Assembly (NCBI GenBank): GCA_012960465.1
Contig: DUBF01000092.1
Location: 19,995 to 83,994, forward strand
Length of the DNA stretch: 64,000 nt
Direction: 5' to 3'
Origin: Rhodospirillales bacterium
GTDB taxonomy: Bacteria > Pseudomonadota > Alphaproteobacteria > Rhodospirillales > UBA2165
In this document: in pieces, positions 8,090 through 25,487 of the stretch
Position numbering within the stretch: position 1 is the first letter of the stretch
Layout: every line of letters starts with the position of its first letter
Program-made: the position numbers and the translations under genes
The notes under the pieces: generated by a model
The model's database searches: none
What the model was told of the DNA's origin: nothing
Seen by the model: the letters and a program-made list of their open reading frames with translations, nothing else

Positions 8090-9070
8090 TCAAAGATTAA
8101 ATAGTTTTTCAGCGTTCGTGCCTTTGACTTTTGTTGCAATATCAGGCGCTAAAGCGTTGACGCGCTCTAGATTGCCTTTCATATCGCCAACATTATGTGG
8201 ATAATCAGATCCATATAGTAATCTTTCTGACCCTGAAACATGTAAGCATAGCTCAAGTGCTTCTTGAGTATAAGCGATCGAGTCAAAATAGAGACGTTCA
8301 AAATAGGTGCTTGGGCTTTCTGAAATAATTTCTCTGCATGGCGGCATATTATCAAATGCAGTATCAAGTCTTCCAACTAAATACGGTAAAGCCCCACCTG
8401 CGTGACAGGCTATGATTTTAACTTTCTTATAACGATCAAAAAAGCCACCATAAATCATTCTTGAAATCGCTAAAGTTGTGTCGAACATAAAGCCAACTGA
8501 AAATGCCAGGTTATATTTTTCCATGTCCATTTCAGCAACCCCAGGAGGTGCGCCGGGATGAATCAGAACAGGTAAATCACGACTGTCTATGGCATCCCAG
8601 ATAGGTGCAAAAGTCTGGTCCGTCAGCGACATTCCGGTTATACTCGCCGAAACAAACACTCCAGCGCAACCCTTCGTAATAGCACGCTCTAGTTCTATCA
8701 ATGCCTTTTCTGGGTATTGCCAAGGCAAAGTAGCGAACCAGCGGATACGATCTGGATAGTTAGACTGTTGGTCAGACATGTCATCATTCATCATTTGGGC
8801 CGTTGAGGTGCTAATTTTTTCGCCACCCCAATATACACTCGGGCAAGTGAGTGAAACGATTGATATATCTACTCCTGCTTTATCCATGTCTTTGATACGT
8901 TGTGCATAATCAAACATCGGATCCATGAGTGTCATAAAAGGAGCGTCGCCATAATGGATTACACGCTGACCACCAAGCTCTTTTAACGAATAATGTCCGC
9001 CATGTTCTAGAATTGTACTGAGCCAAAGATCGTTGAGCATATGTGTATGGACATCAATGACTGTAGACAT
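8090..9070 (-). CDS. Amidohydrolase_2 family enzyme (ACMSD / LigW / LigI-like decarboxylase or hydrolase)
   Basis: IDVHTHM (HxH), LIHPG, CHAGG and GSDYPH motifs. Strong SD GGGGAGG just upstream of ATG 9070. Confidence 0.8.
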   Translation of the reverse strand: MSTVIDVHTHMLNDLWLSTILEHGGHYSLKELGGQRVIHYGDAPFMTLMDPMFDYAQRIKDMDKAGVDISIVSLTCPSVYWGGEKISTSTAQMMNDDMSDQQSNYPDRIRWFATLPWQYPEKALIELERAITKGCAGVFVSASITGMSLTDQTFAPIWDAIDSRDLPVLIHPGAPPGVAEMDMEKYNLAFSVGFMFDTTLAISRMIYGGFFDRYKKVKIIACHAGGALPYLVGRLDTAFDNMPPCREIISESPSTYFERLYFDSIAYTQEALELCLHVSGSERLLYGSDYPHNVGDMKGNLERVNALAPDIATKVKGTNAEKLFNL

Positions 9071-9202
9071 TTAAACCTCCCCAATAATCTTATTTTTATT
9101 GTGTCTAAGATTATGTAGCTTCAATTAAGGTTCTGTAAATCTATTATTTTAACTCTACACAATTCTGATTTGACTTTTGCCAATAAAAAACCAATCTATT
9201 TA

Positions 9203-10060
9203 TTAAGCTGCTCTCACCTTAACCTCCATTCGCCCTATTTTTTCAATTTCGGCTACCATGGTATCTCCAGGTTCGACTGGCCCAACACCATCGGGCGTTC
9301 CTGTCATGATAATATCTCCAGGATAGAGTGTATAACGGGTTGTCGTATATTCAATACATTTTTGGACGTTGTATACAAGCTGACTTGTATTGGAGTTTTG
9401 TCGCTCTTTACCGTTGACCGATATAGTTAAATCTAGATCATTTGGATTTTTGATCTCATCTTTTGTAACCATCCAAGGCCCTAAAACTGAATAGCTATCC
9501 GATGATTTGCGAAAGCTTTGTAATTCTTTGCCGCGTGTTGTCATGTCTAACCCAATTGCATATCCAGCAACATGATCGAGGGCGCTGTCTGCCGAAATAT
9601 TTGTACCCTCTTTGCCGATAATTGCAGCTAGCTCAACTTCATGGTCATTTCGATTATCAACAAAGCGAAGGGCAACCCCCTCGCCTGCGCCAACGAGTGA
9701 CGAGTTGGATTTCAAAAACATTCCCCAATCCCAGATATTGGTAATAGGACGTTGAGAGACGATGCCATCATCTAGGTTACTTTCATCAATATGTTTTTGA
9801 TAATTTATTGGGGCACCAACGATATTCATAGGGTTTGCCACCGGGCTTAAAAGTTTTACTTCCGATATTGGTTTGCTGGGAGCGGTATCACGTATATTTT
9901 TTATTACGGCTACAACAGAATCAAGATTAGAAAGAAGTTGATCTCCGTGAGGGTAGGGCCAATTTAAACTCGGCAAAACAACTAAGGCCTGGCTTACATC
10001 GAAAACATTTTCTCCTTGGATTAGACCTAATTGATCATCGTCGAAGCGGCAAATTTTCAT
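9203..10060 (-). CDS. Fumarylacetoacetate hydrolase (FAH) family protein
   Basis: 285 aa with the C-terminal PGDIIMTGTPDGVGPVEPGD signature. It starts 14 nt after the stop of the diiron gene. Confidence 0.85.
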   Translation of the reverse strand: MKICRFDDDQLGLIQGENVFDVSQALVVLPSLNWPYPHGDQLLSNLDSVVAVIKNIRDTAPSKPISEVKLLSPVANPMNIVGAPINYQKHIDESNLDDGIVSQRPITNIWDWGMFLKSNSSLVGAGEGVALRFVDNRNDHEVELAAIIGKEGTNISADSALDHVAGYAIGLDMTTRGKELQSFRKSSDSYSVLGPWMVTKDEIKNPNDLDLTISVNGKERQNSNTSQLVYNVQKCIEYTTTRYTLYPGDIIMTGTPDGVGPVEPGDTMVAEIEKIGRMEVKVRAA

Positions 10061-10074
10061 GTAATAAATACCCG

Positions 10075-10788
10075 TTAATAAGTGTTGAGGTTGATATCTG
10101 GAAGAGTAAGACCAAGTTTTGTCACAACGGTCTCTGCGCGTTTTACATATTCAGCTCGCATGTTTTCATTAGTGCATTTCTTGATACCCCATTTTCGGTA
10201 AATCTCATTATTTTTTGACTCAGATTTGCCGAACATTGATGGTATTATCGGAAATATAACGTCAACATAACCTTGAATAAGCTCTTTACCGCCTTCTCTC
10301 TCACAAATATCTGCAGTAAAATTCTCTCCAAATTCGGCATGAAAATGTTCTTCAGGCATGGTCATTCGAGCGAGGTTTCTAAGGGGGTGGAAGCTACATT
10401 GGACTAGGTCTTCAACGAGAATAATTTCTGCAAGGTCACCCAACATTTTAATGACGCAAAACTCTTCCCAAGTTTTCATATTATAACTCATGATGGTCAG
10501 TGGCGACTTTTCGGTAAGGTCTGGTAACATCTGGGATTCTTCGATTCCCATTTCGCGGCCTAGTTCAAAAAACCGGTAATGATGTCCATATTCTTCCATT
10601 ACAACCCTACACACTTGCCATTTTGCATATGGATCCGGGGCCATGGCGATAGCTGGCTCGTCATAGACCTGCGAACCATAAAGTTCATTTATTGCATGGC
10701 TGATAACAATTTTGCGGCAAGCCACTTTATATTCTTCGGGCCCCGTACGCCAATCTTCTAGGGTTGTAAATTGTTTGATGTCAGGCAT
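10075..10788 (-). CDS. Ferritin-like diiron-carboxylate protein, PaaA/PaaC (phenylacetyl-CoA epoxidase) family-like
   Basis: 237 aa. Putative ligands are E35, E66-x-x-H69 (EEYGHH), D118 and E147-x-x-H150 (PEEHFHAEFG), with roughly 30-residue spacing between the helix pairs, as in four-helix-bundle diiron oxygenases. Confidence 0.7.
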   Translation of the reverse strand: MPDIKQFTTLEDWRTGPEEYKVACRKIVISHAINELYGSQVYDEPAIAMAPDPYAKWQVCRVVMEEYGHHYRFFELGREMGIEESQMLPDLTEKSPLTIMSYNMKTWEEFCVIKMLGDLAEIILVEDLVQCSFHPLRNLARMTMPEEHFHAEFGENFTADICEREGGKELIQGYVDVIFPIIPSMFGKSESKNNEIYRKWGIKKCTNENMRAEYVKRAETVVTKLGLTLPDINLNTY

Positions 10789-10809
10789 TATGAGTTACTT
10801 TCTCGCTCT

Positions 10810-11757
10810 TTAAATAATTGGTTCTGTGTTAAAGGCTTCCAAATCAGTTTCTAGCTTTGTAAATTTCTTTTTGAAGGTTTTATCTACCGCAACGGTAAAT
10901 TCGTCAATAGACCAATCTTGATCCATTTGTACAATTGTCTCTATAGGGCGGGGTTGACTGAACAAAAAAACTTCTCTTCCACGGACGCCAAACACTTGGC
11001 CCGTCACATCTGATGCAGCAGGTGAACATAAATAAGAAACAAACCTAGCGACATGACTTGGGGAGACTTTTAAGGCTCTGTTTTTATATTCTGCCTGTTG
11101 GTCATTAGCAGGTTCAATTATATCTGTAACCCGACTATGGGCAAAGGGGGCAATATAGTTACAAGTAACGTTAGAGCGGGCCATTTCAAGTGCTGTTATT
11201 CTCATTAAACCAAATAAACCAGCTTTTGCGCTTCCATAATTTGCTTGCCCAAAATTGCCGTACAGTCCTGCAGTTGAGCCTATGTTTAATATACGTCCCC
11301 AATTGTATGCTTCACCAGATCCCCGATTCTCTTTAAATTGTTGGCGCATCATCGGCGTTGCTGCTCGTGTCAGATAGAAGGCTGAGGACAGATTATTTTT
11401 TATTACAATTTCCCAATCTTCCGACGTGCCTTTGAAAATAAGGCCATCGCGTAAGATGGCGGCACAATTGATAATCATATCGATACCACCAAATTCGCCG
11501 ATCGCCATGGCCACCAATTCTTCTGCTGCTTTTGGCGAGGCTACGCTTCTCGTGTAAATCCGTGAGGGGCCTGATAGTTGTTTGACGGCTTCCTCAACTA
11601 TTATGTGATTTTCTTGAGATCCGTCTATGTCGCAACCATTATCAGCGGCTACAATAGAGACCCCTTGGGTCGATAATTCTTTCGCGATGGCCAGGCCAAT
11701 TCCGCGTCCAGCACCAGTCACAATACCAACCCGGGGTTGAGGATTATTTTTTGACAC
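10810..11757 (-). CDS. Short-chain dehydrogenase resembling the (3R)-hydroxyacyl-CoA dehydrogenase domain of MFE-2 type enzymes
   Basis: TGAGRGIGLAIA, ILRDGLIFKGTSEDWEIVIKNNL and GQANYGSAKAGLFGL (YxxxK). GTG start at 11757 directly abuts the TAG stop of the reductase gene (TAGGTG). Confidence 0.8.
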   Translation of the reverse strand: MSKNNPQPRVGIVTGAGRGIGLAIAKELSTQGVSIVAADNGCDIDGSQENHIIVEEAVKQLSGPSRIYTRSVASPKAAEELVAMAIGEFGGIDMIINCAAILRDGLIFKGTSEDWEIVIKNNLSSAFYLTRAATPMMRQQFKENRGSGEAYNWGRILNIGSTAGLYGNFGQANYGSAKAGLFGLMRITALEMARSNVTCNYIAPFAHSRVTDIIEPANDQQAEYKNRALKVSPSHVARFVSYLCSPAASDVTGQVFGVRGREVFLFSQPRPIETIVQMDQDWSIDEFTVAVDKTFKKKFTKLETDLEAFNTEPII

Positions 11758-12783
11758 CTAATTGATCTCCATTTTTTTCTTTTCTGCTTCCGTATAAAAT
11801 GCATCGGCGTGACAGTCAGCGTCCTGTATGCCTAAGTTTTTAAGTCTTTTAATCACACTCTCAACCATTACTGGTGGGCCAGCAATATAAGCTTTATTGC
11901 CACGGACTTTATGAAAATCTTTTGCAATCGCATCGTCAAGAAATCCCGTCCGATGACAGGTTTTGATGTTTGGTTCGGAAATTACTGGAATAAAACTGAA
12001 ATTTTCATAAGACTGAGAGAGCTTTTTAAATTCTTCTTCTAAATAAAGGTCGCGATCCGTACGAACCCCAAAATAAAAAGTGATTGGCTGCTGGATTCCA
12101 TAAACCAAAGTAGTTCTCAAAATCGATTGTATTGGTGCGAGGCCCGACCCCCCAGCGACAGCGATAATTGGACCTTTATGGTTTTCGCGAAGATAGGCTG
12201 TGCCATAGGGACCCTGTACGCTGACTGTATCACCCACTTTTAAATTATTTTGAATGTGTGGTGTTACTGTGCCATCTGGCAATAGTCGAATATGAAATTC
12301 AAGCGTATTTGTGTCGGGAGTATTTGCCATAGAATAATCCCTAGGAGGTAATTTCTCAAATGTCAGGGATGCATATTGCCCCGCTGAAAAATCGTAAGGT
12401 CCGCCGGATAGGATACTCATTTTTACAATTTTGATATCATGGGTTGCTTGAATAAGATCTACTACTTTACATTCTAGTAACCTATTAGCGTGAACACGGG
12501 TCTCATCGTCGTCAACTATACTAATTTCGCAATCTGACCACGGGACGGATCGGCAGGGTAGAATTAATCCACGGTTTTTCTCTTCGCCAGTGAGAGCATA
12601 TTCAGAATAAGGAGACATTTCCAGATCTCCCGAATGGAGGATTGATTTGCACGCACCACAATTGCCAGATCGGCAGCCATGTGGAAATTCTATTTGTTGG
12701 TTTAATGCGCATTCCAAAATTGTCTTACCCATGGTAACTTCGATAGTTACATTTTTCTCTCGAATGGTTACTTTATAATTCAT
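11758..12783 (-). CDS. Oxygenase reductase: N-terminal plant-type [2Fe-2S] ferredoxin fused to an FNR-like FAD/NAD(P)H domain (BenC/MmoC/DmpP domain order)
   Basis: GCRSGNCGACKS...LPCRS cysteine pattern at the N-terminus, then RDYSMAN (RxYS FAD motif) and VAGGSGLAPI (NAD motif). Confidence 0.85.
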   Translation of the reverse strand: MNYKVTIREKNVTIEVTMGKTILECALNQQIEFPHGCRSGNCGACKSILHSGDLEMSPYSEYALTGEEKNRGLILPCRSVPWSDCEISIVDDDETRVHANRLLECKVVDLIQATHDIKIVKMSILSGGPYDFSAGQYASLTFEKLPPRDYSMANTPDTNTLEFHIRLLPDGTVTPHIQNNLKVGDTVSVQGPYGTAYLRENHKGPIIAVAGGSGLAPIQSILRTTLVYGIQQPITFYFGVRTDRDLYLEEEFKKLSQSYENFSFIPVISEPNIKTCHRTGFLDDAIAKDFHKVRGNKAYIAGPPVMVESVIKRLKNLGIQDADCHADAFYTEAEKKKMEIN

Positions 12784-12941
12784 TTAGAGCTTCATCCGCC
12801 AGATCCCTATATATTTATAAACATTCCGATTAGGATTGTACCTTAGGTCTTTTATATTTTATGCTTAAGTTCAATAAAAACAAAGAAAATATTAGTTAGA
12901 AATACGCTTAATACTTGTAGGATGTTGCGTGGGGGATAGAA

Positions 12942-14486
12942 ATGCTCATTGGTGATTTAATTAAAAACTCGGCAGAGAGACATCCAAATAAAACTGCCAT
13001 TATTTCGGGCGAGTTAGCGGCTTCATATAAAGATTTGAATGGGGCGGCAAATAAGATTGCAAATGCGATAATAAATCAAGGCCTACCCGTTAATGCAAAT
13101 CTTGCGATATTATCTGCTAATCAATTCGACTATCCCGCTATATATTTTGGGGTGGCGAAGTCTGGGAAAATATTGGCTCACCTATCAAGTCGTTTTAATC
13201 CCGATGAACTGCTTCACGTCATTAATAAAACAGATATCAGTACAATCTTTGTGCATATAGATCTGGTGGATACCCTTTTAAGTATTCGGCGCGCAGCACC
13301 TAATTTATCTCAGGTAATTGTTTTTGGCGGCAAGAAAACGCCAAGCAATCAATTGTCTTCGCTGGATGAGTTTGTTGGGAGTGCATCATCAAGCGAGCCA
13401 AGGGTAAATATAAAAGAGACGGATGCTTTTGCTATCACCTTTACAGGGGGTACAACAGGTTTCCCTAAAGGTGTCGTTGTAAATCATGCTTCTCGGATAA
13501 TTGGCAGTGTTCGAGCAGAACGAGAGTTTGATATGGTGGCAGGTGATATTAATTGCTGTTCGACGCCATTATTCCACATCGCTGGTCTGTTTGTCTGGTT
13601 TCAGACGAGTATTAAAATGGGCTGCACCTGTGTTTTATTGTCATCATGGGATCCTGAAAAATTTATTGATCTTGTGGAAAATTCTGGCGTAACAGGTGCA
13701 TTCCTAGTCCCAACTCAGATTAATAGTGTTCTGAACCATCCTGATTTTTTGCGAGAGCGGCTAAAAAATTGGCGTTATTGCAGTCACGGTGGTGCGCCAA
13801 CATCAACTGCTCAGCTCCAACGTATGCTTGAACAACTACCTGATGTAATTTGGGAAGAACAGTATGGGCAATCTGAAGCTGGAAATCTAACCGTGCGGCC
13901 TAAGAAATTTATCTTAAAGAAAGCAGCTAGTGTTGGAAGGGCATTCAGCGATGTCGAGTTGGCAATTGTTGATCGCGATGAGATACAACTTTCAGCTGGA
14001 AAATCGGGGGAAGTGGTCACTAAAGGTGTCCAAACAATGATGTACTATTATAACGATCCGGATCAGACTAAAGAAACGTTTACCTCCGACGGTTGGTTAA
14101 AAACTGGTGATATCGGTTACATAGATTCAGATGGCTTTTTATTTTTGGTAGACCGTTCAAAAGACATGATTATTTCGGGGGGTGAAAATATTTTCCCAAC
14201 GGAAATTGAGAATGCGCTTTATAGCCACCCGAATGTACGTGAATGCGCAGTTTTTGGAATTCCTGATGATCACTGGGGAGAATTACCTGCCGCGCATGTT
14301 ATATTGAAGGCTGGTAAAATTATAACAGAAGATGAATTAGAAGATTATTGCGTGTCACAAATTGCTCGCCATAAACGACCGCGTTTAATTAAATTTGTTG
14401 ATTCTTTGCCAAAAACTGCTGTTGGGAAGATTCAAAAAAATATTTTAAGAGAGCCTTATTGGATGGAAAAAGATCGTACGATTTGA
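12942..14486 (+). CDS. AMP-dependent acyl/aroyl-CoA synthetase (ligase)
   Basis: FTGGTTGFPKG AMP-binding motif, GWLKTGDIG and PKTAVGKIQK. Divergent from the reductase operon. Confidence 0.9.
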   Translation: MLIGDLIKNSAERHPNKTAIISGELAASYKDLNGAANKIANAIINQGLPVNANLAILSANQFDYPAIYFGVAKSGKILAHLSSRFNPDELLHVINKTDISTIFVHIDLVDTLLSIRRAAPNLSQVIVFGGKKTPSNQLSSLDEFVGSASSSEPRVNIKETDAFAITFTGGTTGFPKGVVVNHASRIIGSVRAEREFDMVAGDINCCSTPLFHIAGLFVWFQTSIKMGCTCVLLSSWDPEKFIDLVENSGVTGAFLVPTQINSVLNHPDFLRERLKNWRYCSHGGAPTSTAQLQRMLEQLPDVIWEEQYGQSEAGNLTVRPKKFILKKAASVGRAFSDVELAIVDRDEIQLSAGKSGEVVTKGVQTMMYYYNDPDQTKETFTSDGWLKTGDIGYIDSDGFLFLVDRSKDMIISGGENIFPTEIENALYSHPNVRECAVFGIPDDHWGELPAAHVILKAGKIITEDELEDYCVSQIARHKRPRLIKFVDSLPKTAVGKIQKNILREPYWMEKDRTI

Positions 14487-14518: not shown

Positions 14519-15283
14519 TCACCAAGCTGTCCATCCTCCGTCTACCTTGAGACTTTCGCCTGTAATCATAGCTGCGCCGGGTGAAGCCAGGAAAATAACG
14601 GCGGCTGCTACATCTTCTACTGTTCCAATATGACCAAGTGCTATATTATTTTCGACGGTCTCTTTAAATTCGATATTCTTAAACATTGGGCGTGTGAAAG
14701 GTGTGTCGATGAATGTTGGTGCGACCGCATTAACCCGAATACCCTCAGGGGCTAATTCGACGGCTAACGCTTTAGTCAAACCTTCGACCGCATGTTTTGT
14801 GGTGCAATATAGGGTCCGATTTGGCGCCCCGATGTGCCCCATCTGGGACGACATGTTGATTATTGACCCTGAACCTTGTTTCAGCATTATCTTTGCTGCA
14901 CTTTGTGAGGCACGAAATATAGCACGGATATTTAGGTCCATCAGCCAATCAATTGTTTCAAGGGTAATATCTGATATAGGTTGTGGTTTGTTAGCACCTG
15001 CACAACCTACAAGAATATCAAGTTGATCCATATTTTCGATTTTGGAGTATAATCTATCATTTAGAACATCTTCGGCCCAGTAAGTAATATTATCTGGATT
15101 ATGGGATTGCACCTCTTTTAAATCATTCTCGGTACGAGCAACGGCTATAACTTTTGCACCAGCTGCGGCTAGGCCAATAGCACAAGCGCGGCCCAAACCT
15201 TTACCTCCACCCGTTACTAGCGCAACTTTGCCATTAAATTTAGGGGCAGAAGTTAGTGATTCTACGTCAACAGGATCAGTCAT
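14519..15283 (-). CDS. Short-chain dehydrogenase/reductase (classical SDR)
   Basis: VTGGGKGLGRA glycine motif and YCTTKHA (YxxxK). 254 aa. Confidence 0.9.
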   Translation of the reverse strand: MTDPVDVESLTSAPKFNGKVALVTGGGKGLGRACAIGLAAAGAKVIAVARTENDLKEVQSHNPDNITYWAEDVLNDRLYSKIENMDQLDILVGCAGANKPQPISDITLETIDWLMDLNIRAIFRASQSAAKIMLKQGSGSIINMSSQMGHIGAPNRTLYCTTKHAVEGLTKALAVELAPEGIRVNAVAPTFIDTPFTRPMFKNIEFKETVENNIALGHIGTVEDVAAAVIFLASPGAAMITGESLKVDGGWTAW

Positions 15284-15445
15284 TACTTGTTTCCATCTCT
15301 GTACTTTAATTCATATTGACTAACATCCCTAAGAGATACTGTAAACGCTGTCTTAGCTTGTTAAAACAGCGTTAATTTTCTATCTTCCCTACTAATAAGA
15401 AAATGGACAGTAAGAAAAAAATGCTTTCTCATAGGAGTTTATAAC

Positions 15446-16732
15446 ATGGCCCGATACCTTAAAAAAGGCATTAGCCAAGAAGAAAAAGATGTTGCTGAAG
15501 TTGAGGTGCGGAAAACGGTTGAGGGTATTTTGGACGATATTAAAGTTCGCGGTGATGCTGCACTGGAAGATTATTCTGAGAAATTTGATAATTGGCGGCC
15601 GGAAGAATTTCGTCTCAGTCGGACCGAAATTGATTCATGTTATGACCAAGTGACTAAACAGAATATTGAAGATATTACATTTGCTCAAAAACAAGTTAGG
15701 GGTTTTGCAGAAATTCAGAAAGCGGCTTTAGTTGATGTGGAACAGGAGACGTTACCTGGGGTTGTTCTTGGGCATAAAAATATTCCTGTAAATTCAGTTG
15801 GTTGTTATGTGCCAGGCGGTAAGTACCCGATGGTCGCGTCGGCCCATATGAGCGTAGTAACAGCAAAGGTTGCCGGTGTGAAACGCATTATTGCTTGCGC
15901 TCCGCCTTATGAAGGTAAGCCTAGTTCAGCAATTGTTGTTGCTCAAGACATGGCGGGTGCAAATGAAATTTATTGTCTTGGTGGCGTTCAGGCTATGGGC
16001 GCTATGGCTTTGGGGACAGAAAATATAGCACCCGTAGATATGCTTGTAGGCCCTGGAAATGCTTACGTTGCTGAAGCAAAGCGTCAGCTTTTTGGCCGCG
16101 TGGGTATTGATTTGCTGGCAGGTCCGACAGAGACATTGATAATTGCCGACGATACAGTTGATGGTGAATTATGTGCGGCTGATTTGCTTGGCCAGGCAGA
16201 ACATGGGCCGACCAGCCCTGCGGTGCTTTTAACGAATTCCGAAGCTCTTGCTTTGCAAACAATGAAGGAAGTTGATCGACAACTCAAAATATTGTCAACA
16301 GGTGAAGTTGCGGGTCAGGCTTGGGATGTTTATGGGCAGGTAATTGTTTGTGATAGTTACGAAGAAATGCTGAGTGAGGCAGATAGAATTGCCTCCGAAC
16401 ACGTCCAAGTAATGACAAGGGATCCGGATTATTTTCTTAATAACATGACAAACTATGGGGCACTATTTTTGGGTCCCGAGACTAATGTTTCTTATGGTGA
16501 TAAGGTGATTGGCACTAACCATACTTTGCCGACCAAAGGAGCTGGACGTTATACGGGTGGTTTATGGGTAGGGAAGTTCATCAAAACCCATACCTATCAG
16601 CGTATTACTGAAGCGGCTTCTATTGAGGTTGGTAAATATTGCTCACGTCTTTGCGAATTGGAAGGTTTTGCCGGCCATAAGGAACAAGCGGATATTCGTC
16701 TGCGCCGTTATGCAGGGATAAGTCAGGGTTGA
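15446..16732 (+). CDS. Histidinol-dehydrogenase-family enzyme, probably a paralog acting on another alcohol (HpsN-like candidate)
   Basis: 428 aa with [15 protein letters not shown] and GTNHTLPT (Zn/His motifs of the HisD family). SD AGGAG is present. There is no his-operon context; a TRAP transporter follows. Confidence 0.8.
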
Positions 16733-16874: not shown

Positions 16875-18803
16875 TTGAAATCTAACAATAGATTTGGCAG
16901 CAGGGTAGGAATTCAAAGGAAAATGATTAAAGTATCTGATTCAATTGTTTGGGTCTTGAGTTTTTGTATCGCTTTGGTTGCAGTATATACAGCTGCATTT
17001 GGTATCGTTGATGAGATTTATCAGCGTAGCATTACCGTTGCGGTATCGCTCATAGTTGCCATTTTTGGATCTTCCTTGGCAAAATTGTATCAAACCGAAG
17101 ATCAACAAATTAAATTTGGACAATGGGCCATTGATTTTGTCCTCATTTTTTTGATTGTTTTATCGATCGTCTGGTTTTCTTCCGTTTATGATGAACTTGA
17201 GAGTGGGCTCTATAGTTTTTTGCCTGATGACCTTGCTGTTGGATGTGGGGGGCTGCTTGTCGTTCTTGAGATGACACGGCGTTGTTATGGTTGGCCCTTA
17301 GCATTTTTTGCCTTACTTACGATCATTTATGCTTTATTTGGGGCGGATCTTCCCTGGATCTTTGCTCATGGGGGCTACGATCTTGAATCGGTGATGCGGA
17401 CGGTTTGGTATAGTTTTGATGGAGTATTCGGCTTTATCGTTATCATCGTGTTATCACTCATATTTATATTCATTATTTTTGGTGCCATGCTGGAAGCGAC
17501 AGGTGCAGGCAGTACCCTCTTAAAAATAGCCATCAGTCTAACTGGCCCGTTGAGGGGGGGGCCGGCACATGCTGCAATTGCGGCGAGTGGTTTTTTTGGC
17601 ACTGTCTCAGGCTCGGTAACCGCCAATGTTGTCGGAACTGGTGTTTTTACCATACCGATGATTAAAGCACGTGGATTCAGAAGTTCTTTTGCTGGAGGAG
17701 TTGAAGCGGCAGCTTCCTCAGGAGGACAGTTTATGCCGCCGGTTATGGGCGCTGTGGCCTTCGTCATGGCTGATTTTACCGGTATACCTTATGTAATTAT
17801 TATTGCTGCAGCCGTAATGCCGGCTCTGTTTTACTATGGGAGTTTATTCATTGCCGTTTGGGTTGAAGCGGCACGACTAGGAATTACTTCGATACCAAAA
17901 GAAGAGCGAGAAGTTTTGGTGCGGGAAGATTGGATCAAATCCCTAATGTTTTTTGTTCCAGTAGTAGTTATCATTGGTGTTCTGATTACGGGTCGTTCGC
18001 CTGCAGCTGCTGGTTTGTGGGCAACCGTCGCGGGCGTCGTCATGGGATTTATCAATCCTATTGTTCGCAAAAGACCCCGGATATTTATTGATGCGTTAGC
18101 CAAGGGTGGTGAGCAATGTGCTCGTATTATGGTGGCTGTCGCGGCCATAGGAATTATTGTTGGCGTCATGAATTTGACGGGGCTCGGTATACGTTTTTCT
18201 AACATGGTACTTGCTTTTGCAGGTACAAATTTATTCTTCGCACTTTTATTGATGGCGCTGGCAAGTTTGGTGCTTGGTATGGGACTTCCCACGATACCGG
18301 CATACATCATTATCATCATAATTATGGGTGGTGCGATTGAAAAATTGGGCGTTCCCAAAATGTTAGTACATCTTTTCGTAGTCTATTTTGGTGTATTGTC
18401 GGCGATTACGCCGCCCGTTGCTATTGCCGCATACGCGGCTGCGCCGATCGCTAATTCGAATCCCATGAAAACAGCTATACAGGCTATCAAGCTTTCATTC
18501 GTTGGATTTATAATTCCCTTTGTTCTGATTTATAATCCGTCTCTATCTCTGGTTTATAATTTTGAGGTTATCGCTTTTGTGTCGGTTGTGATCAGGCTTG
18601 CTCTGGCTATCTGGTTAATGACCACAGCATTAGGTGGCGTGGACCGCGCTCCATTGCCGCTTTATTCAAGGATTTTGCGCATAACCCTTGGTGTTATAAT
18701 TCTACTGAATTTTGTTGAAGCGCAGATTGCTGGTGTTATTGCCTCCATTATACTGCTCTATGTGGAATACAGGCGAGCAAAGTTAACAATAATTTCTAAG
18801 TAA
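16875..18803 (+). CDS. TAXI-type TRAP transporter, fused small/large permease
   Basis: 642 aa, highly hydrophobic and multi-TM, with a GGPAHAAIAASGFFGTVSGS motif shared with the second permease at 59081. The start is uncertain (TTG 16875 or ATG 16923). Confidence 0.9.
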   Translation: MKSNNRFGSRVGIQRKMIKVSDSIVWVLSFCIALVAVYTAAFGIVDEIYQRSITVAVSLIVAIFGSSLAKLYQTEDQQIKFGQWAIDFVLIFLIVLSIVWFSSVYDELESGLYSFLPDDLAVGCGGLLVVLEMTRRCYGWPLAFFALLTIIYALFGADLPWIFAHGGYDLESVMRTVWYSFDGVFGFIVIIVLSLIFIFIIFGAMLEATGAGSTLLKIAISLTGPLRGGPAHAAIAASGFFGTVSGSVTANVVGTGVFTIPMIKARGFRSSFAGGVEAAASSGGQFMPPVMGAVAFVMADFTGIPYVIIIAAAVMPALFYYGSLFIAVWVEAARLGITSIPKEEREVLVREDWIKSLMFFVPVVVIIGVLITGRSPAAAGLWATVAGVVMGFINPIVRKRPRIFIDALAKGGEQCARIMVAVAAIGIIVGVMNLTGLGIRFSNMVLAFAGTNLFFALLLMALASLVLGMGLPTIPAYIIIIIIMGGAIEKLGVPKMLVHLFVVYFGVLSAITPPVAIAAYAAAPIANSNPMKTAIQAIKLSFVGFIIPFVLIYNPSLSLVYNFEVIAFVSVVIRLALAIWLMTTALGGVDRAPLPLYSRILRITLGVIILLNFVEAQIAGVIASIILLYVEYRRAKLTIISK

Positions 18804-18969
18804 ATAATTTTATTCATATATATTATTATATAACATTAGTTGTAATAATTACTTAAGATGATCAATATATGTTTTTTTCAAGGATCTATATCTGGCATGC
18901 CAACTTGATTTGTTTTAAAGTACTGTTTATGTTTAATTTAATAAGTTATCCAACCAACGGGAGGACATT

Positions 18970-19989
18970 GTGATTTCAACTGGAATAAAGACAAAACTTA
19001 TCGCTGGGGCAGCTGCAGCGGTTATGTGTATCGGCACTGCGCAAGCAAAAGATTTTTATAAGATGTCGACAATCAGTTTGCCTACACCTTTTGCAATTAA
19101 CACTACTTTTGCCAAGATTGTACAGAAATATAACAAAGGTATTGAGATTCAAATTAACGCTACAGGCGCGGCTCCTCGTCATGCCTTGGACGCAGCCAAC
19201 GGCAAGACGGACTTATTTTTTGGTGCTCCCTCATTGATGTGGTTAATGAATAAGGGCGTCGCCATGTTTAAAAAGGTCAAGAATGCCCCCAAACTGGCCA
19301 AGAACATCCGTTTAATTTTTAACTATCGAATTGGAACCTATAATTTTGGTGTTTACGGTGATTCAGGCATAAAAACGTTGTTTGATATTAAGGGTAAACG
19401 CGTATTCATTGGCCCGCCAACCGGAGTGCAGAAAGTTGTATCCGCTCAGTTTATTGAGGCTGTGACGGGCTATAAAATGGGCAAAGATTATACCCCTGTT
19501 AAACTTGGTTTTAGCCCGGCCATGCAGGCATTCCAGGACAGGCAAATTGACATGATAGTGGCAACTTCGAATCACCCGGCTTCTTTTTTCTCGCAAGTAG
19601 CTTTAACCAGTAAAATTCGCTTCTTGGGTATTGTAGATCCAAAAGCTTGGGATGCGCCGTCAATGAAAAAGATGTTTCGTGTTCCTGGTAAATCCCGGGC
19701 TCTCATAGCACCTGACATTTACGGGAAAAATCAAGTCAATGAGAAGCCTACGCACACGATTTCTGCTTATACTGGGTTGTATACCCGCAAAGGTGTCCCA
19801 GAGGATGTTATCTACAAAATGACCAAAACATTTTGGGAGCATATTGATGAAATGTGGTCTGTAACTCGATGGGCTAAGGGTGCTCTGAATAAAAAAATGA
19901 TATTTAAACAGAATAGCACAAAATTGCATCCGGGTGCCCTTAAGTATTATAAGGAAATAGGACTAAAAATACCGGCTAGTGCGAAGTAA
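18970..19989 (+). CDS. TAXI-family TRAP solute-binding protein
   Basis: Signal peptide ending AQA/KD and a C-terminal LHPGALKYYKEIG signature typical of TAXI receptors. GTG start with GGGAGG upstream. Confidence 0.9.
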   Translation: MISTGIKTKLIAGAAAAVMCIGTAQAKDFYKMSTISLPTPFAINTTFAKIVQKYNKGIEIQINATGAAPRHALDAANGKTDLFFGAPSLMWLMNKGVAMFKKVKNAPKLAKNIRLIFNYRIGTYNFGVYGDSGIKTLFDIKGKRVFIGPPTGVQKVVSAQFIEAVTGYKMGKDYTPVKLGFSPAMQAFQDRQIDMIVATSNHPASFFSQVALTSKIRFLGIVDPKAWDAPSMKKMFRVPGKSRALIAPDIYGKNQVNEKPTHTISAYTGLYTRKGVPEDVIYKMTKTFWEHIDEMWSVTRWAKGALNKKMIFKQNSTKLHPGALKYYKEIGLKIPASAK

Positions 19990-20007: not shown

Positions 20008-20038
20008 AAACCCGTCCCTGTCTTGGGCGGGTTTTTTT
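20008..20038. terminator. Rho-independent terminator (bidirectional position between convergent genes)
   Basis: AAACCCGtCC / GGCGGGTTT stem with an 8-nt loop, followed by T7. It overlaps the stop codon of the convergent CoA-ligase gene. Confidence 0.7.
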
Positions 20039-21554
20039 ATACCATTTCTCGGAGCTGTGTTTTTAATACCTTGCCATAGTTATTTTTAGGCAGTTCTTGG
20101 ACAAAACGGTATTTTTTTGGCCTTTTGAAACGAGCTATATTGGCAATACAGAGTTCATCCAGCTCAATTTCTGTTACGGTGGTTCCATCCTTGCAGACGA
20201 TAAAGGCTATAACTTCTTCTCCCCATTCCGCGTTGGGTCGTCCTACAATCGATACTTCAGCAACATTTTCATTCTTTAACAAAACTTCTTCGACTTCTCG
20301 GGGGTAGATATTGGATCCGCCGGAGATTATGACGTCCTTCGAACGATCTTTTAGTGTAAGAAAACCCTCCGCATCGATTTCACCCATATCACCAGTATGT
20401 AACCATCCGTCACGTAATGTCTGGCGCGTCGCTTCTTCGTTTCGCCAATAGCCTATCATCACAACGTCGCCACGAACGCAAACCTCTCCCACCTCACCAT
20501 TTGCGAGGGTTCTATCATTTTCATCGACGATGCAAATTTCAAGGTCGCTTCTTGCGGTTCCTACAGATCCGAGTTTATGCAAATAACGCGGATCGTCGGT
20601 GGGTGTATGTGCGTCGCGAGAAAGAGCTGTTATCGTCATGGGAGACTCACCTTGTCCATATATTTGGACAAGCTTAGGGCCTAATACGTCCAAGGCTCGT
20701 TGGCAGTCTTCAACATACATTGGCCCTCCGCCGTAAATAATTGTTTTGAGATTACGGGTGTCCCCTTCCAATATTTTTTTAGAATCAATCAAGCGGGTAA
20801 CCATTGTTGGAGCGAAGAAGGCGTTCACATTTTTATGACTAAGTAATAAATCTGCGATCTCATCGGGGTCAAAGCCCCCGCTAGGTGGAATAATTTGTAA
20901 GGCGCCCTTTGCGACGTATGGCAATATATAGAGCCCCGATCCGTGAGACATCGGAGCCGCGTGCAGGAGACTATCCTGTTCATCAACGGGATCAACATCG
21001 CCAAAGTAGCTGATTGTCATCATTATAAGATTTCGATGGGTTAACATTGCCCCTTTGGGGCGCCCTGTGGTGCCACTGGTATAAAAAAGCCAGGCAACGT
21101 CGTCTGGCTTCGTTTCTGTCATAGTGATTTCTTTAGATTCTAGTAATTTACCATATTCTGCACTATCGGCGTTAAGGATTGTAAGTCCGGCATTCTCCTC
21201 ACTTGCTTCTTTGATACCCTTTTCTAGATCGTTTGTAACAAAACACAGGCTTGCCCCCGAGTTCTCTAATATAAATTCAAATTCGCGCAGATGCAGTTTA
21301 GCATTCATAGGGACTGCAGTAAGACCGGCGTGCCATGTGGCAAATAAAATTACACTGTAATTTGTGCAATTTTTCATGGCAATGCCAACGCGGTCACCGG
21401 CTTTGAGGCCAAAATTGTTTCTCATTGCTCCAGCTAATTGCTTCACGCTTTTAGCAAATTCTGAATAAGTTTGGACTGTTTCCTGACCATAAGCTATCGC
21501 AGGCCGGTCGGCCCAGGTTATACTTGATTTTGCTAAAAGGCTGGTGATATTCAT
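20037..21554 (-). CDS. AMP-dependent acyl-CoA synthetase
   Basis: YTSGTTGRPKG, GWLHTGDMG and PKNNYGKVLK motifs. 505 aa. Confidence 0.9.
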   Translation of the reverse strand: MNITSLLAKSSITWADRPAIAYGQETVQTYSEFAKSVKQLAGAMRNNFGLKAGDRVGIAMKNCTNYSVILFATWHAGLTAVPMNAKLHLREFEFILENSGASLCFVTNDLEKGIKEASEENAGLTILNADSAEYGKLLESKEITMTETKPDDVAWLFYTSGTTGRPKGAMLTHRNLIMMTISYFGDVDPVDEQDSLLHAAPMSHGSGLYILPYVAKGALQIIPPSGGFDPDEIADLLLSHKNVNAFFAPTMVTRLIDSKKILEGDTRNLKTIIYGGGPMYVEDCQRALDVLGPKLVQIYGQGESPMTITALSRDAHTPTDDPRYLHKLGSVGTARSDLEICIVDENDRTLANGEVGEVCVRGDVVMIGYWRNEEATRQTLRDGWLHTGDMGEIDAEGFLTLKDRSKDVIISGGSNIYPREVEEVLLKNENVAEVSIVGRPNAEWGEEVIAFIVCKDGTTVTEIELDELCIANIARFKRPKKYRFVQELPKNNYGKVLKTQLREMV

Positions 21555-21579
21555 TCTTTAGCTTTTCATATTGCGTTTG

Positions 21580-22113
21580 TTAGATCGGTTCTGCATTGAC
21601 TAAAATTGCTGCCAGGATACATGGATCATCTGTACGAACACTCCAGGAGTGGTTCGTTCCACGCTGTATCATAACATCACCCTGTTTGAGGCAGGTCTCA
21701 GCGCCGTCGTCTAGGATGGCCCATATTTCGCCCTTAAGAACAACAAGGTAGTCAACCGTTGACGTTTTATGCATCATTGCATCTTCACTCGTATCATCTG
21801 TGGCGTGGTCTGCGCCGATAGAGCTAAACGCTTCTTTTGCGTCGGCGTTGTCTCGCCAAGCCGAATCTGGCGGAAATTCAACAATTCTAAGAACAGTTCC
21901 GGATGCAGGTGGCTCTAAGACGATGGGCCGATCCGCGGCATCAGCATTACCACTATTATCAGCTGGCGCTGAGTTTGTGACCCAGAGATCCGTTAATGCC
22001 AACCCTGGCATGGATTCCATTTCTTTAACACTAGTAGCTATACCATCTTTAATAAAAATCGATTTGCCATTGGCATCGTGCCCCGTAACTACTCTTCTAA
22101 TTTTTTCTACCAT
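21580..22113 (-). CDS. Cupin-domain protein (monocupin)
   Basis: MHKTSTVDYLVVLKGEIWAILDDG...GDVMIQRGTNHSW, a cupin motif 1/2-like arrangement. 177 aa. Confidence 0.7.
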   Translation of the reverse strand: MVEKIRRVVTGHDANGKSIFIKDGIATSVKEMESMPGLALTDLWVTNSAPADNSGNADAADRPIVLEPPASGTVLRIVEFPPDSAWRDNADAKEAFSSIGADHATDDTSEDAMMHKTSTVDYLVVLKGEIWAILDDGAETCLKQGDVMIQRGTNHSWSVRTDDPCILAAILVNAEPI

Positions 22114-22136
22114 GGGTTTTCTCCTTATATAAAATT

Positions 22137-23123
22137 CTATGTTTTCACTATTATTTTATTACGTAAGGTTCCTATACCTTCAACTTCCAACTCTATAATA
22201 TCGCCCGGTGCAAGATAGCGTTCTAACTCTAGGCCAGAGCCTCCACCGACGGTTCCTGATCCAAAAAACTCACCTGGATAAAGTGTTTCCGATTTAGAAA
22301 TATAGCAAATCAAATCTTCAAATTTCCAATTGATAGAACTACTTGACCCCCGCGACCATTCTTCACCATTAACTCGAGCAATCATCGTTAAATTGTAGGG
22401 GTCAATTTCGTCGGCGGTGACAATACAGGGACCTATGATATTACCCGTATCAAAATCTTTACCCTTGGCTGGACCAAGGCCGCCTTGCATTTCAGTCGCC
22501 TGGATGTCGCGCGCGCTCATATCGTTAAAGATAGAATAGCCAAATATATGATCCATTGCCTTTTCACGCGAAATATCTCGACCTTTTTTACTTATGAAGA
22601 AACCAAATTCTAATTCAAAGTCCATCGTCTTTGCATAATATGGCCAAATCACATCCTGGTCCGTTCCAATTACGGAGAAACGATTTGCTTTGTAGTAGAT
22701 GGGCTGTTGGTACCAAACCTCTGGAATTTTGAATAACCCCTGTTTTTCATATTGAAGCAGAGCAGCTTCGGGATCCACCTCACCTGCAGCCTTAATTTTT
22801 TGCAACACCTCATAGGCTTGAATTAGATGTTCCTCAAAACAAAGGCAGTCACGGATTTGAGGAGGTTCTGGAATAGGGGTGCACAAGGTCACAGATTTAG
22901 CTTCAAAAATTGCCTCCGAATGGGGTTTGTCGAGCTCTTTATTTATATCTGCCAATGCCTTTTCATTGCCTTTAATTATGTTGAGAACCGATATGAGATC
23001 AGGGTTGTATTTATGATTATTCATTTGACTGGAAGATGCCAGATCTAAAATTTTCTTTCCGTCGGCTATTAGAACTCCAGCGCACTCTTTTTTTTTGTCA
23101 TTTAAGAAAGTTACTAATTTCAT
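22137..23123 (-). CDS. Fumarylacetoacetate hydrolase (FAH) family protein
   Basis: C-terminal LYPGEFFGSGTVGGGSGLE and central FAH-fold motifs. I prefer ATG 23123 (MKLVTF...) preceded by GAGGGGGGAG over the track's start at 23210. Confidence 0.85.
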   Translation of the reverse strand: MKLVTFLNDKKKECAGVLIADGKKILDLASSSQMNNHKYNPDLISVLNIIKGNEKALADINKELDKPHSEAIFEAKSVTLCTPIPEPPQIRDCLCFEEHLIQAYEVLQKIKAAGEVDPEAALLQYEKQGLFKIPEVWYQQPIYYKANRFSVIGTDQDVIWPYYAKTMDFELEFGFFISKKGRDISREKAMDHIFGYSIFNDMSARDIQATEMQGGLGPAKGKDFDTGNIIGPCIVTADEIDPYNLTMIARVNGEEWSRGSSSSINWKFEDLICYISKSETLYPGEFFGSGTVGGGSGLELERYLAPGDIIELEVEGIGTLRNKIIVKT

Positions 23124-23253
23124 CGGCTCCCCCCTCGTTACGAGACAATTCTTTATTATAATCATAGCAAAGTGAAACTTTAAGCCAATACCTTTAGAGA
23201 TAGAAAACAAGGTAGTATTGTTAAGGACGAGCTAAATAGAATGGAAAAAAGGT

Positions 23254-24207: not shown

Positions 24208-24340
24208 AAAAAGCCCGCTGTGAGTGATCAGTGGACTTTTTAATTAATAAATTTGATAGTTATTTTTTCTTTGCTTTAGCTTTCTTAGTAAACGACGTTT
24301 TATATATTTCCCCCACTTTCTATCAGGTTTTAATTGCTTA

Positions 24341-25294: not shown

Positions 25295-25487
25295 GGATTA
25301 TTTCCTAGCCTAACTAGCTGTTAAAATCAGAATTCATTTGGTTATTAAAACTTGCCATATTATGAGTTTTAGATCAATTAGGCATAAATAGGCGACTAAT
25401 TAGCATTTAAAGACAAATAAAATAACGTAATTCTATACTTGATTTCTATTGTTGAAAACAAAACAAATAAAATAATTGGAAAGCCTT

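Follow-up and report, generated by a model that had tools for sequence, protein, structure and literature searches.

A 64,000-nucleotide stretch of DNA from a Rhodospirillales bacterium, referred to below as the window, encodes a 237-amino-acid (aa) PaaA-like diiron protein whose gene lies directly behind those of a BenC-type reductase and a short-chain dehydrogenase/reductase (SDR). This reductase-SDR-diiron trio recurs with the same gene order in related bacteria, and across most lineages the genes of the gentisate pathway are physically attached to it. Relative to the known diiron oxygenases that act on aryl-coenzyme A (CoA) esters, it is new in its subunit architecture, its near-obligate SDR partner and its metabolic outlet. 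On balance we lean towards a mechanism in which an aryl-CoA ring oxygenase works with a re-aromatising dehydrogenase of the 3-hydroxyacyl-CoA type to yield a dihydroxy-aroyl-CoA, probably gentisyl-CoA. An original prediction, made from the nucleotide sequence alone, had described the locus as a minimal diiron oxygenase within a five-gene CoA-thioester operon, opposite a divergently transcribed ligase, that matches no recognised pathway; this last judgement is fair as far as curated models go, since none of the six encoded proteins reaches an NCBIfam equivalog cutoff.

The 237-aa protein matches the Pfam family PaaA_PaaC (PF05138) with 84.1 bits over residues 12-231, above the gathering cutoff of 28.5 bits, but stays below the NCBIfam cutoffs for PaaA (TIGR02156, 89.7 bits versus an equivalog cutoff of 280), PaaC (TIGR02158, 22.6 versus 133) and BoxB (TIGR03225, 15.6 versus 499.1). 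The complete set of diiron-carboxylate ligands that had been read from its sequence (E35, E66xxH69, D118 and E147xxH150) is indeed present; these residues align one-to-one with Glu42, Glu72, His75, Asp126, Glu155 and His158 of PaaA (PMC4498308; numbering in the PDB chain is offset by 2), and all six are invariant among 16 homologs that are 59-82% identical to the window protein. The alignment of these 16 homologs served to build an AlphaFold2 model (pLDDT 95.2, pTM 0.90), which was compared with solved structures by Foldseek. The closest match was PaaA, with a template modelling (TM) score of 0.89, a root-mean-square deviation of 1.9 Å and 24% identity, followed by SSO1313 (0.83), PaaC (0.78, 13% identity) and BoxB (0.73), while aldehyde-deformylating oxygenase scored about 0.65. 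With a fold nearer to PaaA than to PaaC and ligands that do not vary, the protein does not behave as a PaaC-like relative with unconserved ligands would; it is predicted to be a catalytic, PaaA-type, single-subunit ferritin-like diiron protein, probably homo-oligomeric, and by its sequence appears to belong to an uncharacterised PaaA-like subfamily. It also seems to be the sole oxygenase subunit, as had been proposed: PaaB, PaaC, PaaD or Box genes were absent among the window's open reading frames (ORFs) of at least 150 aa, none of them was a recurrent neighbour in 89 related loci, and no crotonase-type BoxC was present in the window.

The reductase partner has its Pfam domains in the BenC/MmoC order foreseen by the original prediction, with an N-terminal Fer2 (residues 5-81) followed by FAD_binding_6 (105-196) and NAD_binding_1 (209-310), and not in the PaaE order. 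It scores 201.6 bits against the BenC model (cutoff 430) and 185.4 bits against MmoC, as compared to 116.9 bits against PaaE (cutoff 420.8), where only the FNR half is matched, and 32.7 bits against BoxA (cutoff 459.2). Together with the motifs C37x4C42x2C45...C77, R148-D-Y-S (RxYS, for FAD) and G211GSGLAP (for NAD), this marks it as a predicted NAD(P)H:oxygenase reductase with an N-terminal plant-type 2Fe-2S cluster. The SDR carries TGAGRGIG at residues 14-21, S161 and Y174xxxK178, and D39 at the end of beta-2 suggests NAD as its cofactor. By far its best solved relative is 2et6, the (3R)-hydroxyacyl-CoA dehydrogenase of MFE-2 (4.5e-64), ahead of the HSD17B4 structures 1zbq and 1gz6 (~1e-37) and FabG-type reductases (~1e-34), so that the likeness to MFE-2 noted earlier is borne out. 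It would therefore rank as a classical SDR of the MFE-2 (3R)-hydroxyacyl-CoA dehydrogenase type, and we propose it as the NAD+-dependent dehydrogenase of the oxygenase product.

To our knowledge, only two diiron oxygenases of aromatic CoA esters are understood, PaaABCE and BoxAB, and both dearomatise their substrates for hydrolytic opening. The phenylacetyl-CoA 1,2-epoxidase PaaABC(D)E of E. coli (3pw1, 3pvr) shares with the window's system the ferritin-like four-helix diiron fold, the identical six ligands, membership of PF05138, a CoA-thioester context and an NAD(P)H/FAD/2Fe-2S reductase partner. However, PaaA is 309 aa long rather than 237, the window lacks PaaB, PaaC and PaaD, its reductase has the opposite, BenC-type domain order, an SDR is a near-obligate neighbour, and what follows window-type trios is the gentisate pathway or an FAH-family gene instead of PaaG/PaaZ. 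PaaA alone is reported to be insoluble without PaaC (PMC4498308). The benzoyl-CoA 2,3-epoxidase BoxAB of Azoarcus evansii (3pm5) likewise combines one oxygenase polypeptide with one reductase, is a diiron enzyme and acts on an aroyl-CoA, and the likeness may extend to benzoyl-CoA as substrate and an epoxide as first product. On the other hand, BoxB is a 481-aa chain (TM 0.73), so that the window protein is about half its size, as had been stated; the window reductase is not BoxA-like, the ring hydrolase BoxC is missing, and the fate proposed here is re-aromatisation to a diol, not hydrolytic ring opening. SSO1313 of Sulfolobus solfataricus (4mud, 'ring oxidation complex / PAA degradation-like protein') is also a stand-alone PaaA-like protein, of about 235 aa, and superposes on the model with TM 0.83 by query and 0.88 by target (E 4.9e-8), but it is only 21% identical and, coming from structural genomics, gives no functional guidance. 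Beside these systems the subfamily is a much simpler diiron version, in which a single 237-aa oxygenase subunit is paired with a reductase of the BenC type. Full-text searches of the accessible literature found no paper in which a PaaA-family protein is tied to the formation of gentisate or the subfamily is characterised, and known CoA-dependent gentisate routes (PMC13215587, PMC6460240) use other enzymes.

Homologs of about 237-240 aa number more than 1,600, nearly all of them metagenomic, and the most specific labels they bear are 'PaaA' and 'phenylacetic acid catabolic protein'. In a one-genome-per-species collection, 529 stretches encode a relative of the 237-aa protein. The best 80 of these 529 loci were taken for neighbourhood work; neighbour counts were made on 85 distinct loci, each count being restricted to loci whose flanks were long enough for a verdict. 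All ORFs located up to 7 kb from the diiron gene were clustered without prior assumptions, and the window proteins were also compared with all loci. The SDR gene lies immediately upstream of the diiron gene in 68 of 79 loci and the reductase gene upstream in 66 of 71, and the trio is conserved over diiron identities of 57-87% and across several orders. Given this recurrence, the arrangement is far from chance, and the gene order is kept in relatives. The five-gene operon of the original prediction holds for this core only: a window-type FAH gene directly adjoins the diiron gene in 11 of 68 loci, all at 63% identity or more, and the amidohydrolase is found near the trio in 12 of 68, all close relatives, so that both are confined to the window's clade. 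Conservation marks reductase-SDR-diiron as the functional unit, with the ligase (whose ortholog is divergent from the trio in 37 of 58 scorable loci) as an optional member, rather than the five-gene operon. Long 'diiron' ORFs in L041, L043, L063 and others were considered as natural SDR-diiron fusions; only their C-terminal part matches the diiron protein, and they were rejected because the long ORFs are out-of-frame upstream extensions in GC-rich DNA.

The most frequent further partner of the trio, and an unexpected one, is gentisate 1,2-dioxygenase (GDO; 355-360 aa, TIGR02272 549 bits versus a cutoff of 442), which is encoded within 7 kb of the diiron gene in 36 of 68 loci, usually directly downstream and on the same strand. 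Its presence varies with the identity of the diiron protein to that of the window: 26 of 31 loci at 55-63%, 10 of 27 at 63-75% and 0 of 10 at 75% or more. Other recurrent neighbours are MarR regulators (38 loci), a protein of about 194 aa (36 loci), FAH-family enzymes (35 loci) and 4HBT-type thioesterases (13 loci), and maleylpyruvate-pathway genes also lie near the trio in relatives. For example, the block in Iodidimonas muriae comprises a divergent AMP-forming ligase, MarR, reductase, SDR, diiron protein, GDO, a 199-aa protein and FAH, followed by an ADP-forming CoA-ligase-like protein and a glutathione S-transferase (GST) of the maleylpyruvate-isomerase kind. Judged by its gene content, this block would be a complete gentisate operon.

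The partner of about 194 aa usually follows GDO in trio-GDO operons (36 loci, among them L083:11799-12398 in Iodidimonas muriae and L069:11746-12336). It has no Pfam or NCBIfam match, although an invariant Trp, an invariant Phe and an invariant Gly-x-Trp-Pro suggest a real function. AlphaFold2 gives a confident model of it (pLDDT 92.4) that is largely helical and has a small sheet at the C-terminus, yet the best fold matches in the PDB reach TM 0.44-0.45 and are not significant, so the fold did not lead to a function. A 205-aa neighbour of the diiron homolog in a Streptosporangium strain was discarded as a relative, since only a C-terminal motif of 27 columns is common to the two (G-[RW]-W-P-x-G...F; hhalign probability 13%), and the window's own 177-aa ORF (21580-22113), considered as a divergent copy, showed no similarity. 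Three further features of trio neighbourhoods were seen in passing. A thiamine pyrophosphate (TPP)-dependent enzyme matching PRK08327 (669 bits, above cutoff) lies near the trio in eight loci (for example L002:12710-14431 and L083:2338-4089), directly after the amidohydrolase in the window's clade and upstream of the ligase in Iodidimonas; the window lacks it. In unrelated lineages a protein of some 395 aa (L013:12136-13323; L083:6347-7537), which ends in an OsmC-like domain and is unannotated over its N-terminal two-thirds, recurs near the trio. FAH is replaced in L013 and L015 by glyoxalase/extradiol-type proteins together with a 417-aa ORF that carries no annotation.

In the mechanism towards which we lean, the divergently transcribed ligase would first make an aromatic acyl-CoA. 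The BenC-type reductase would relay electrons from NAD(P)H through FAD and 2Fe-2S to the homo-oligomeric PaaA-like diiron protein, and this protein, which has the fold and ligands of PaaA, would, like PaaA and BoxB, oxygenate the ring beside the thioester and so form a non-aromatic product, either an epoxide or a hydrated dihydrodiol. The MFE-2-type SDR may then oxidise the ring C2-hydroxyl with NAD+, this hydroxyl being the 3-hydroxy position of the acyl-CoA, whereupon the ring would re-aromatise to a dihydroxy-aroyl-CoA, which the partner genes of relatives suggest is most probably gentisyl-CoA. In most relatives the product would go onward via a thioesterase and GDO; in the window's clade the cassette would stand instead before an HbzF-like acyl/maleylpyruvate hydrolase and an ACMSD-like decarboxylase. 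A non-aromatic first product would explain why a dehydrogenase is built into the cassette, and the closeness of the SDR to (3R)-hydroxyacyl-CoA dehydrogenases fits a hydroxyl beta to the thioester. The oxidation to a 3-oxo species that had been predicted is thus retained in altered form: the SDR is of the expected MFE-2 type, but it would act on the ring C2-hydroxyl, at the 3-position of the acyl-CoA. The underlying logic of oxygenase, reductase and SDR is established in BenABC-BenD, which likewise has a BenC-type Fer2-FAD-NAD reductase and an SDR that re-aromatises a dihydrodiol. BenAB, however, is a Rieske non-haem iron enzyme that dioxygenates the free acid, and the action of BenD includes a decarboxylation to catechol, whereas the trio's oxygenase is a diiron protein with a CoA ester as its presumed substrate, and the trio's SDR is of the hydroxyacyl-CoA dehydrogenase type.

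Benzoyl-CoA is the most economical substrate and the one we favour, although its assignment, with a 2,3-epoxide/2,5-dihydrodiol route to gentisyl-CoA, is tentative. In this variant a 2,3-epoxide would form, water would be added at C5, and the resulting 2,5-dihydrodiol would be dehydrogenated to gentisyl-CoA; one oxygen would come from O2 and one from water, and the conversion would be redox-neutral in NADH. It is a shade more doubtful that the trio as such is the long-sought enzyme system that takes benzoyl-CoA to gentisyl-CoA through epoxide, 2,5-dihydrodiol and dehydrogenation. A Bacillus stearothermophilus-like strain reportedly turns benzoyl-CoA to gentisate with NADH and O2, an old observation credited to Zaar and co-workers in 2001; the benzoyl-CoA route, if true, could account for it. 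The gentisyl-CoA thioesterase BH1999 of Bacillus halodurans (PMC516016) would agree with such a route as well.

The association with gentisate genes could also be served by a plain hydroxylase, acting on salicylyl-CoA at the 5-position, on 3-hydroxybenzoyl-CoA at the 6-position or on 4-hydroxybenzoyl-CoA with an NIH shift, for which the SDR would be peripheral. Such an enzyme would be a non-homologous counterpart of the flavoprotein SdgC. We regard this as unlikely, though several observations speak for it. Diiron aromatic hydroxylases that yield phenols directly are well known, and GDO, 4HBT thioesterase and MarR genes are linked to the trio. The same order of steps, from ligase and aryl-CoA hydroxylase over gentisyl-CoA to thioesterase and GDO, is an established route from salicylate that runs via sdgC (cited in PMC13215587 and PMC6460240), and a gentisyl-CoA thioesterase is present in B. 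halodurans (PMC516016). The CoA-dependent salicylate-to-gentisate pathway SdgABCD of Streptomyces WA46, taken together with BH1999, shares its overall logic with the relatives of the window, from ligase through aroyl-CoA oxygenation, gentisyl-CoA and hotdog thioesterase to GDO; it differs in that the trio's oxygenase is a diiron protein with a separate reductase and SDR, and in that the window has neither thioesterase nor GDO. A direct phenol-forming hydroxylase needs no dehydrogenase, however, and this alternative therefore leaves unexplained an SDR gene that is wedged between the reductase and oxygenase genes in 68 of 79 loci. In addition, where the SDR is missing the partners are different. 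Ten of the 11 SDR-less loci form one Defluviicoccus-like clade (L020-L030), in which the diiron protein is about 70% identical to that of the window and the reductase is kept, and whose flanks hold a Rieske oxygenase-like ORF, a family III CoA-transferase, the large subunit of a molybdenum hydroxylase and, on the other strand, a distant FAH. The diiron oxygenase of this clade appears to be wired into a different pathway.

The original prediction saw in the locus an oxygenase-driven, beta-oxidation-like or ring-opening route for a substrate that is not desaturated in the normal way. Read as a bypass of beta-oxidation, a non-aromatic or side-chain acyl-CoA that acyl-CoA dehydrogenases cannot desaturate would be hydroxylated at C3 by the diiron enzyme, oxidised by the SDR to a 3-oxoacyl-CoA and cleaved hydrolytically as a 1,3-dicarbonyl by FAH. 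Its compact diiron oxygenase of one subunit with a BenC-type reductase, in a CoA-ligase context, stands, but the beta-oxidation-like route is less likely than aromatic-ring chemistry because the trio is joined to GDO in 36 of 68 loci, together with MarR, 4HBT and maleylpyruvate-pathway genes. FAH enzymes do cleave 1,3-dicarbonyls, the SDR is nearest to (3R)-hydroxyacyl-CoA dehydrogenases and the ligase to fatty-acyl and phenylpropanoid ligases. Moreover, the window has no ring-cleavage dioxygenase and FAH comes directly after the oxygenase in its clade, and a distant relative in Variovorax sp. WDL1 (28% identity) is accompanied by an SDR, a DUF35 protein, thiolase and MaoC hydratases. Even so, we rate this bypass as decidedly unlikely, given that most orthologous trios are joined to gentisate operons with MarR regulators, that both characterised relatives, PaaA and BoxB, attack aromatic rings, and that FAH stays beside the ligase where the trio is absent. 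The FAH family also acts on free 2,4-diketo acids, not on CoA esters, and the window enzyme is nearest to a maleylpyruvate hydrolase, an enzyme of the lower gentisate pathway. It aligns over its full length with HbzF (6jvv; 1.8e-45), at 38.2% identity over 272 positions, which is well below ortholog level, and is probably an acylpyruvate or maleylpyruvate C-C hydrolase by sequence comparison. The predicted role as a C-C hydrolase is accordingly reasonable, with the proviso that its nearest characterised relative is HbzF and not a 3-oxoacyl-CoA hydrolase. Gene contexts of more distant homologs of this FAH were tried as a further clue to its function and dropped, because they are heterogeneous, with no cluster present in more than 7 of 54 loci.

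The amidohydrolase next to FAH matches no NCBIfam model. Its relatives are ACMSD (4ign, 8.6e-41), IDCase and LigW, and it keeps the metal and catalytic residues H8, H10, H171 (IHP), H223 (CHAGG) and D289 (SDYP). Compared with ACMSD (4ign, 2hbv), its identity is below ortholog level and one of two substrate-binding arginines is missing: Met stands at the position of R47 of human ACMSD, while the second is retained. The protein can thus be placed, from its residues, in the ACMSD/IDCase/LigW group of non-oxidative decarboxylases, and, when the metal ligands and both arginines are taken together as the mark of ACMSD, it would not count as ACMSD itself. In a window that lacks a ring-cleavage dioxygenase, neither this activity nor that of the FAH enzyme has an obvious substrate. 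We speculate that an ACMSD-like enzyme could decarboxylate an ortho-hydroxybenzoate.

A metagenome scan seeded with the window FAH turned up three arrangements. In L099, L101, L102, L104, L105 and L107, with FAH 84-85% identical to that of the window, a divergent ligase abuts FAH and the trio is absent; in L104 (5308-9511), for example, the ligase-FAH intergenic region measures 154 bp, and the genes behind FAH encode a GMC oxidoreductase, a TPP enzyme and a GST. The 537-aa ORF next to FAH in this trio-less variant was considered as a substitute hydroxylase and rejected, as it is the GMC oxidoreductase. Since close relatives keep the syntenic ligase and FAH without it, the trio is a presence/absence cassette. 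One could go further and suppose that there is no single pathway, a mobile trio having landed between the ligase and an unrelated FAH/amidohydrolase unit with which it is incidentally co-transcribed. The trio-less variants agree with this, as do the heterogeneous contexts of distant FAH homologs and the variable content downstream of FAH, where an amidohydrolase, a TPP enzyme, a GMC oxidoreductase or a 2-oxoglutarate oxygenase may be found. We nevertheless consider it quite improbable. In distant lineages the same FAH type again stands behind the trio, in L124 and, in the order trio, 194-aa protein, FAH, in L126, L127 and L129, and it is also present in the GDO-type locus L041; this speaks for a functional link that recurs. 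Far outside the window's clade the ligase, too, is associated with the trio (37 of 58), and the 14-nt gap between the diiron and FAH genes and their common strand imply co-transcription. The scan also found the same FAH type beside GDO without the trio in four metagenome loci (L149, L154, L157 and L164).

Several observations weigh against the gentisyl-CoA mechanism that we prefer, above all as applied to the window itself. Its 64 kb contain neither GDO nor a hotdog thioesterase, the 194-aa partner has no homolog there, and none of the ten closest loci (diiron identity of at least 75%) has GDO. GDO and an adjacent window-type FAH occur together in 0 of 68 loci, and since they never co-occur the window's clade may use other chemistry; either the clade encodes its ring-cleavage dioxygenase in another part of the genome, or a different step stands in for that enzyme. 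FAH and the amidohydrolase need not depend on the trio, which is absent from relatives that have ligase and FAH. Adjacency to GDO tells what the product feeds and not which substrate is used, and hydration of the proposed epoxide has no enzyme assigned to it. Finally, the ligase resembles fatty-acyl, feruloyl and 4-coumarate ligases and not the classical benzoate-CoA type. Its closest NCBIfam model is PRK06187 (443 bits, below the cutoff of 476), its nearest structures are FadD5, FadD13, feruloyl-CoA synthetase and 4-coumarate ligase, and classical benzoate-CoA ligases are not among its top 60 solved relatives. With its nearest solved relatives in this FadD/feruloyl/4-coumarate group, an attempt to read its specificity from them was uninformative.

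Carriers among the best 80 loci are mostly uncultured Alphaproteobacteria (Rhodospirillaceae, Defluviicoccus, Odyssella, MarineAlpha3), with a few metagenome-assembled genomes labelled Chloroflexota, Polyangia or Betaproteobacteria and one cultured organism, Iodidimonas muriae JCM 17843. Further carriers are the cultured Minwuia thermotolerans, which has the trio, and a Streptosporangium strain with a diiron homolog about 40% identical. A profile of the subfamily run against 1.84 billion cluster representatives retrieved just 51 clusters at E<=1e-30, indicating that the subfamily is compact, and no annotated relative on a plasmid exceeded 30% identity. The operon (8090-14486) is nearly complete in eight hydrothermal-vent metagenome runs (0.93-0.98 of sampled words) and partly present in deep-sea and seawater runs. 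In three seawater metatranscriptomes the amidohydrolase, FAH, SDR and ligase genes are matched in part by short contigs, for the most part at 95-99% identity; close homologs of the window genes are transcribed in seawater at a low level.

If the proposed mechanism is true, the trio would represent a new way of making dihydroxy-aromatics from CoA esters. In the narrower benzoyl-CoA reading it would amount to a third aerobic 'hybrid' strategy beside Box and Paa, in which the ring is re-aromatised instead of being opened hydrolytically, and this strategy would be common among Alphaproteobacteria of sea and soil, with about 529 species-level genomes. Hundreds of uncultured Alphaproteobacteria from marine, vent-plume, groundwater and soil habitats carry the gene set under the mistaken label 'PaaA'; the proposed mechanism would supply a proper name, and with it the turnover of aromatic carbon in the ocean could be better estimated. 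Being minimal and probably homo-oligomeric, the PaaA-type enzyme would moreover lend itself to biocatalysis and to model studies of diiron arene oxidation, and the cultured carriers Iodidimonas muriae JCM 17843 and Minwuia thermotolerans make the proposal testable.

Two distant relatives stand in other surroundings. In Streptosporangium sp. NPDC023825 (L092:1-7872) the homolog of about 40% identity has a biosynthetic setting, in the order non-ribosomal peptide synthetase module, PaaA-like gene, 205-aa protein, AMP-ligase and a GATase/chorismate-binding enzyme (anthranilate or ADC synthase-like). On plasmid 4 of Variovorax sp. WDL1 (L091; NZ_LR594692.1, ~114.6-120.5 kb) a 373-aa PaaA-like protein of 28% identity is followed by an SDR and a DUF35/OB-fold gene, alongside a divergent thiolase, two MaoC-type hydratases and an AMP-ligase. 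This cluster looks like an oxygenase-assisted beta-oxidation-type system and is nearer to the original prediction than the window is.

The six ORFs of the locus, their coordinates, the abutting TAG/GTG junction and the intergenic gaps are all as first described: along the minus strand, going by the coordinates, the reductase stop abuts the GTG of the SDR (0 nt), and gaps of 21, 14 and 132 nt follow. GC content is even along the window, at 0.37-0.46, and so does not mark the locus as foreign. A LacI or other operator was looked for in the operon's intergenic regions and rejected, as these contain no inverted repeats of at least 12 nt and site counts are at shuffle level (24 promoter-like sites versus 19.4±4.1 in shuffles, 9 terminator-like sites versus 7.0±2.2).

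Table. Genes and other features of the window, with their positions in the 64,000-nucleotide stretch
Feature	Position	Strand	Match or remark
Amidohydrolase (326 aa, Amidohydro_2)	8090-9070	-	PF04909, 114.4 bits
FAH-family enzyme (285 aa)	9203-10060	-	PF01557 (FAA_hydrolase), 181.9 bits
Diiron protein (237 aa)	10075-10788	-	PF05138 PaaA_PaaC, 84.1 bits
SDR (315 aa, GTG start)	10810-11757	-	Pfam adh_short
Reductase (341 aa)	11758-12783	-	Pfam Fer2, FAD_binding_6, NAD_binding_1
Divergent intergenic region (158 bp, AT-rich)	12784-12941	.	Presumed promoters, from position only
AMP-forming acyl/aryl-CoA ligase (514 aa)	12942-14486	+	Pfam AMP-binding, 209 bits, and AMP-binding_C
SDR (254 aa)	14519-15283	-	
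HisD-family dehydrogenase	15446-16732	+	
TAXI-TRAP transporter	16875-19989		After HisD-family dehydrogenase
Second AMP-ligase	20037-21554	-	
177-aa ORF	21580-22113	-	No family
FAH (357 aa)	22137-23210	-	
Aldo-keto reductase	23254-24207	+	
Two-domain glyoxalase/extradiol-dioxygenase-like protein	24341-25294	-	Only PDB match 3b59, 1e-13
Zinc-dependent alcohol dehydrogenase	25476-26474	+	
POR/DUF6537 protein (1162 aa)	34651-38139		Indolepyruvate or 2-oxoacid:ferredoxin oxidoreductase-like
HpcH/HpaI aldolase or citrate-lyase-beta-like gene	38988-39875	-	Divergent from CoA-transferase
Family III CoA-transferase	39961-41085	+	

Beyond the operon, the genes from the second AMP-ligase to the alcohol dehydrogenase (20037-26474) make up a second small catabolic cluster. 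Closer to the ligase, the divergent region between the 254-aa SDR and the HisD-family dehydrogenase contains an imperfect 25-nt inverted repeat (15331-15386; 72% complementary, 6-nt spacer), which may be an operator of this neighbouring SDR/HisD unit.

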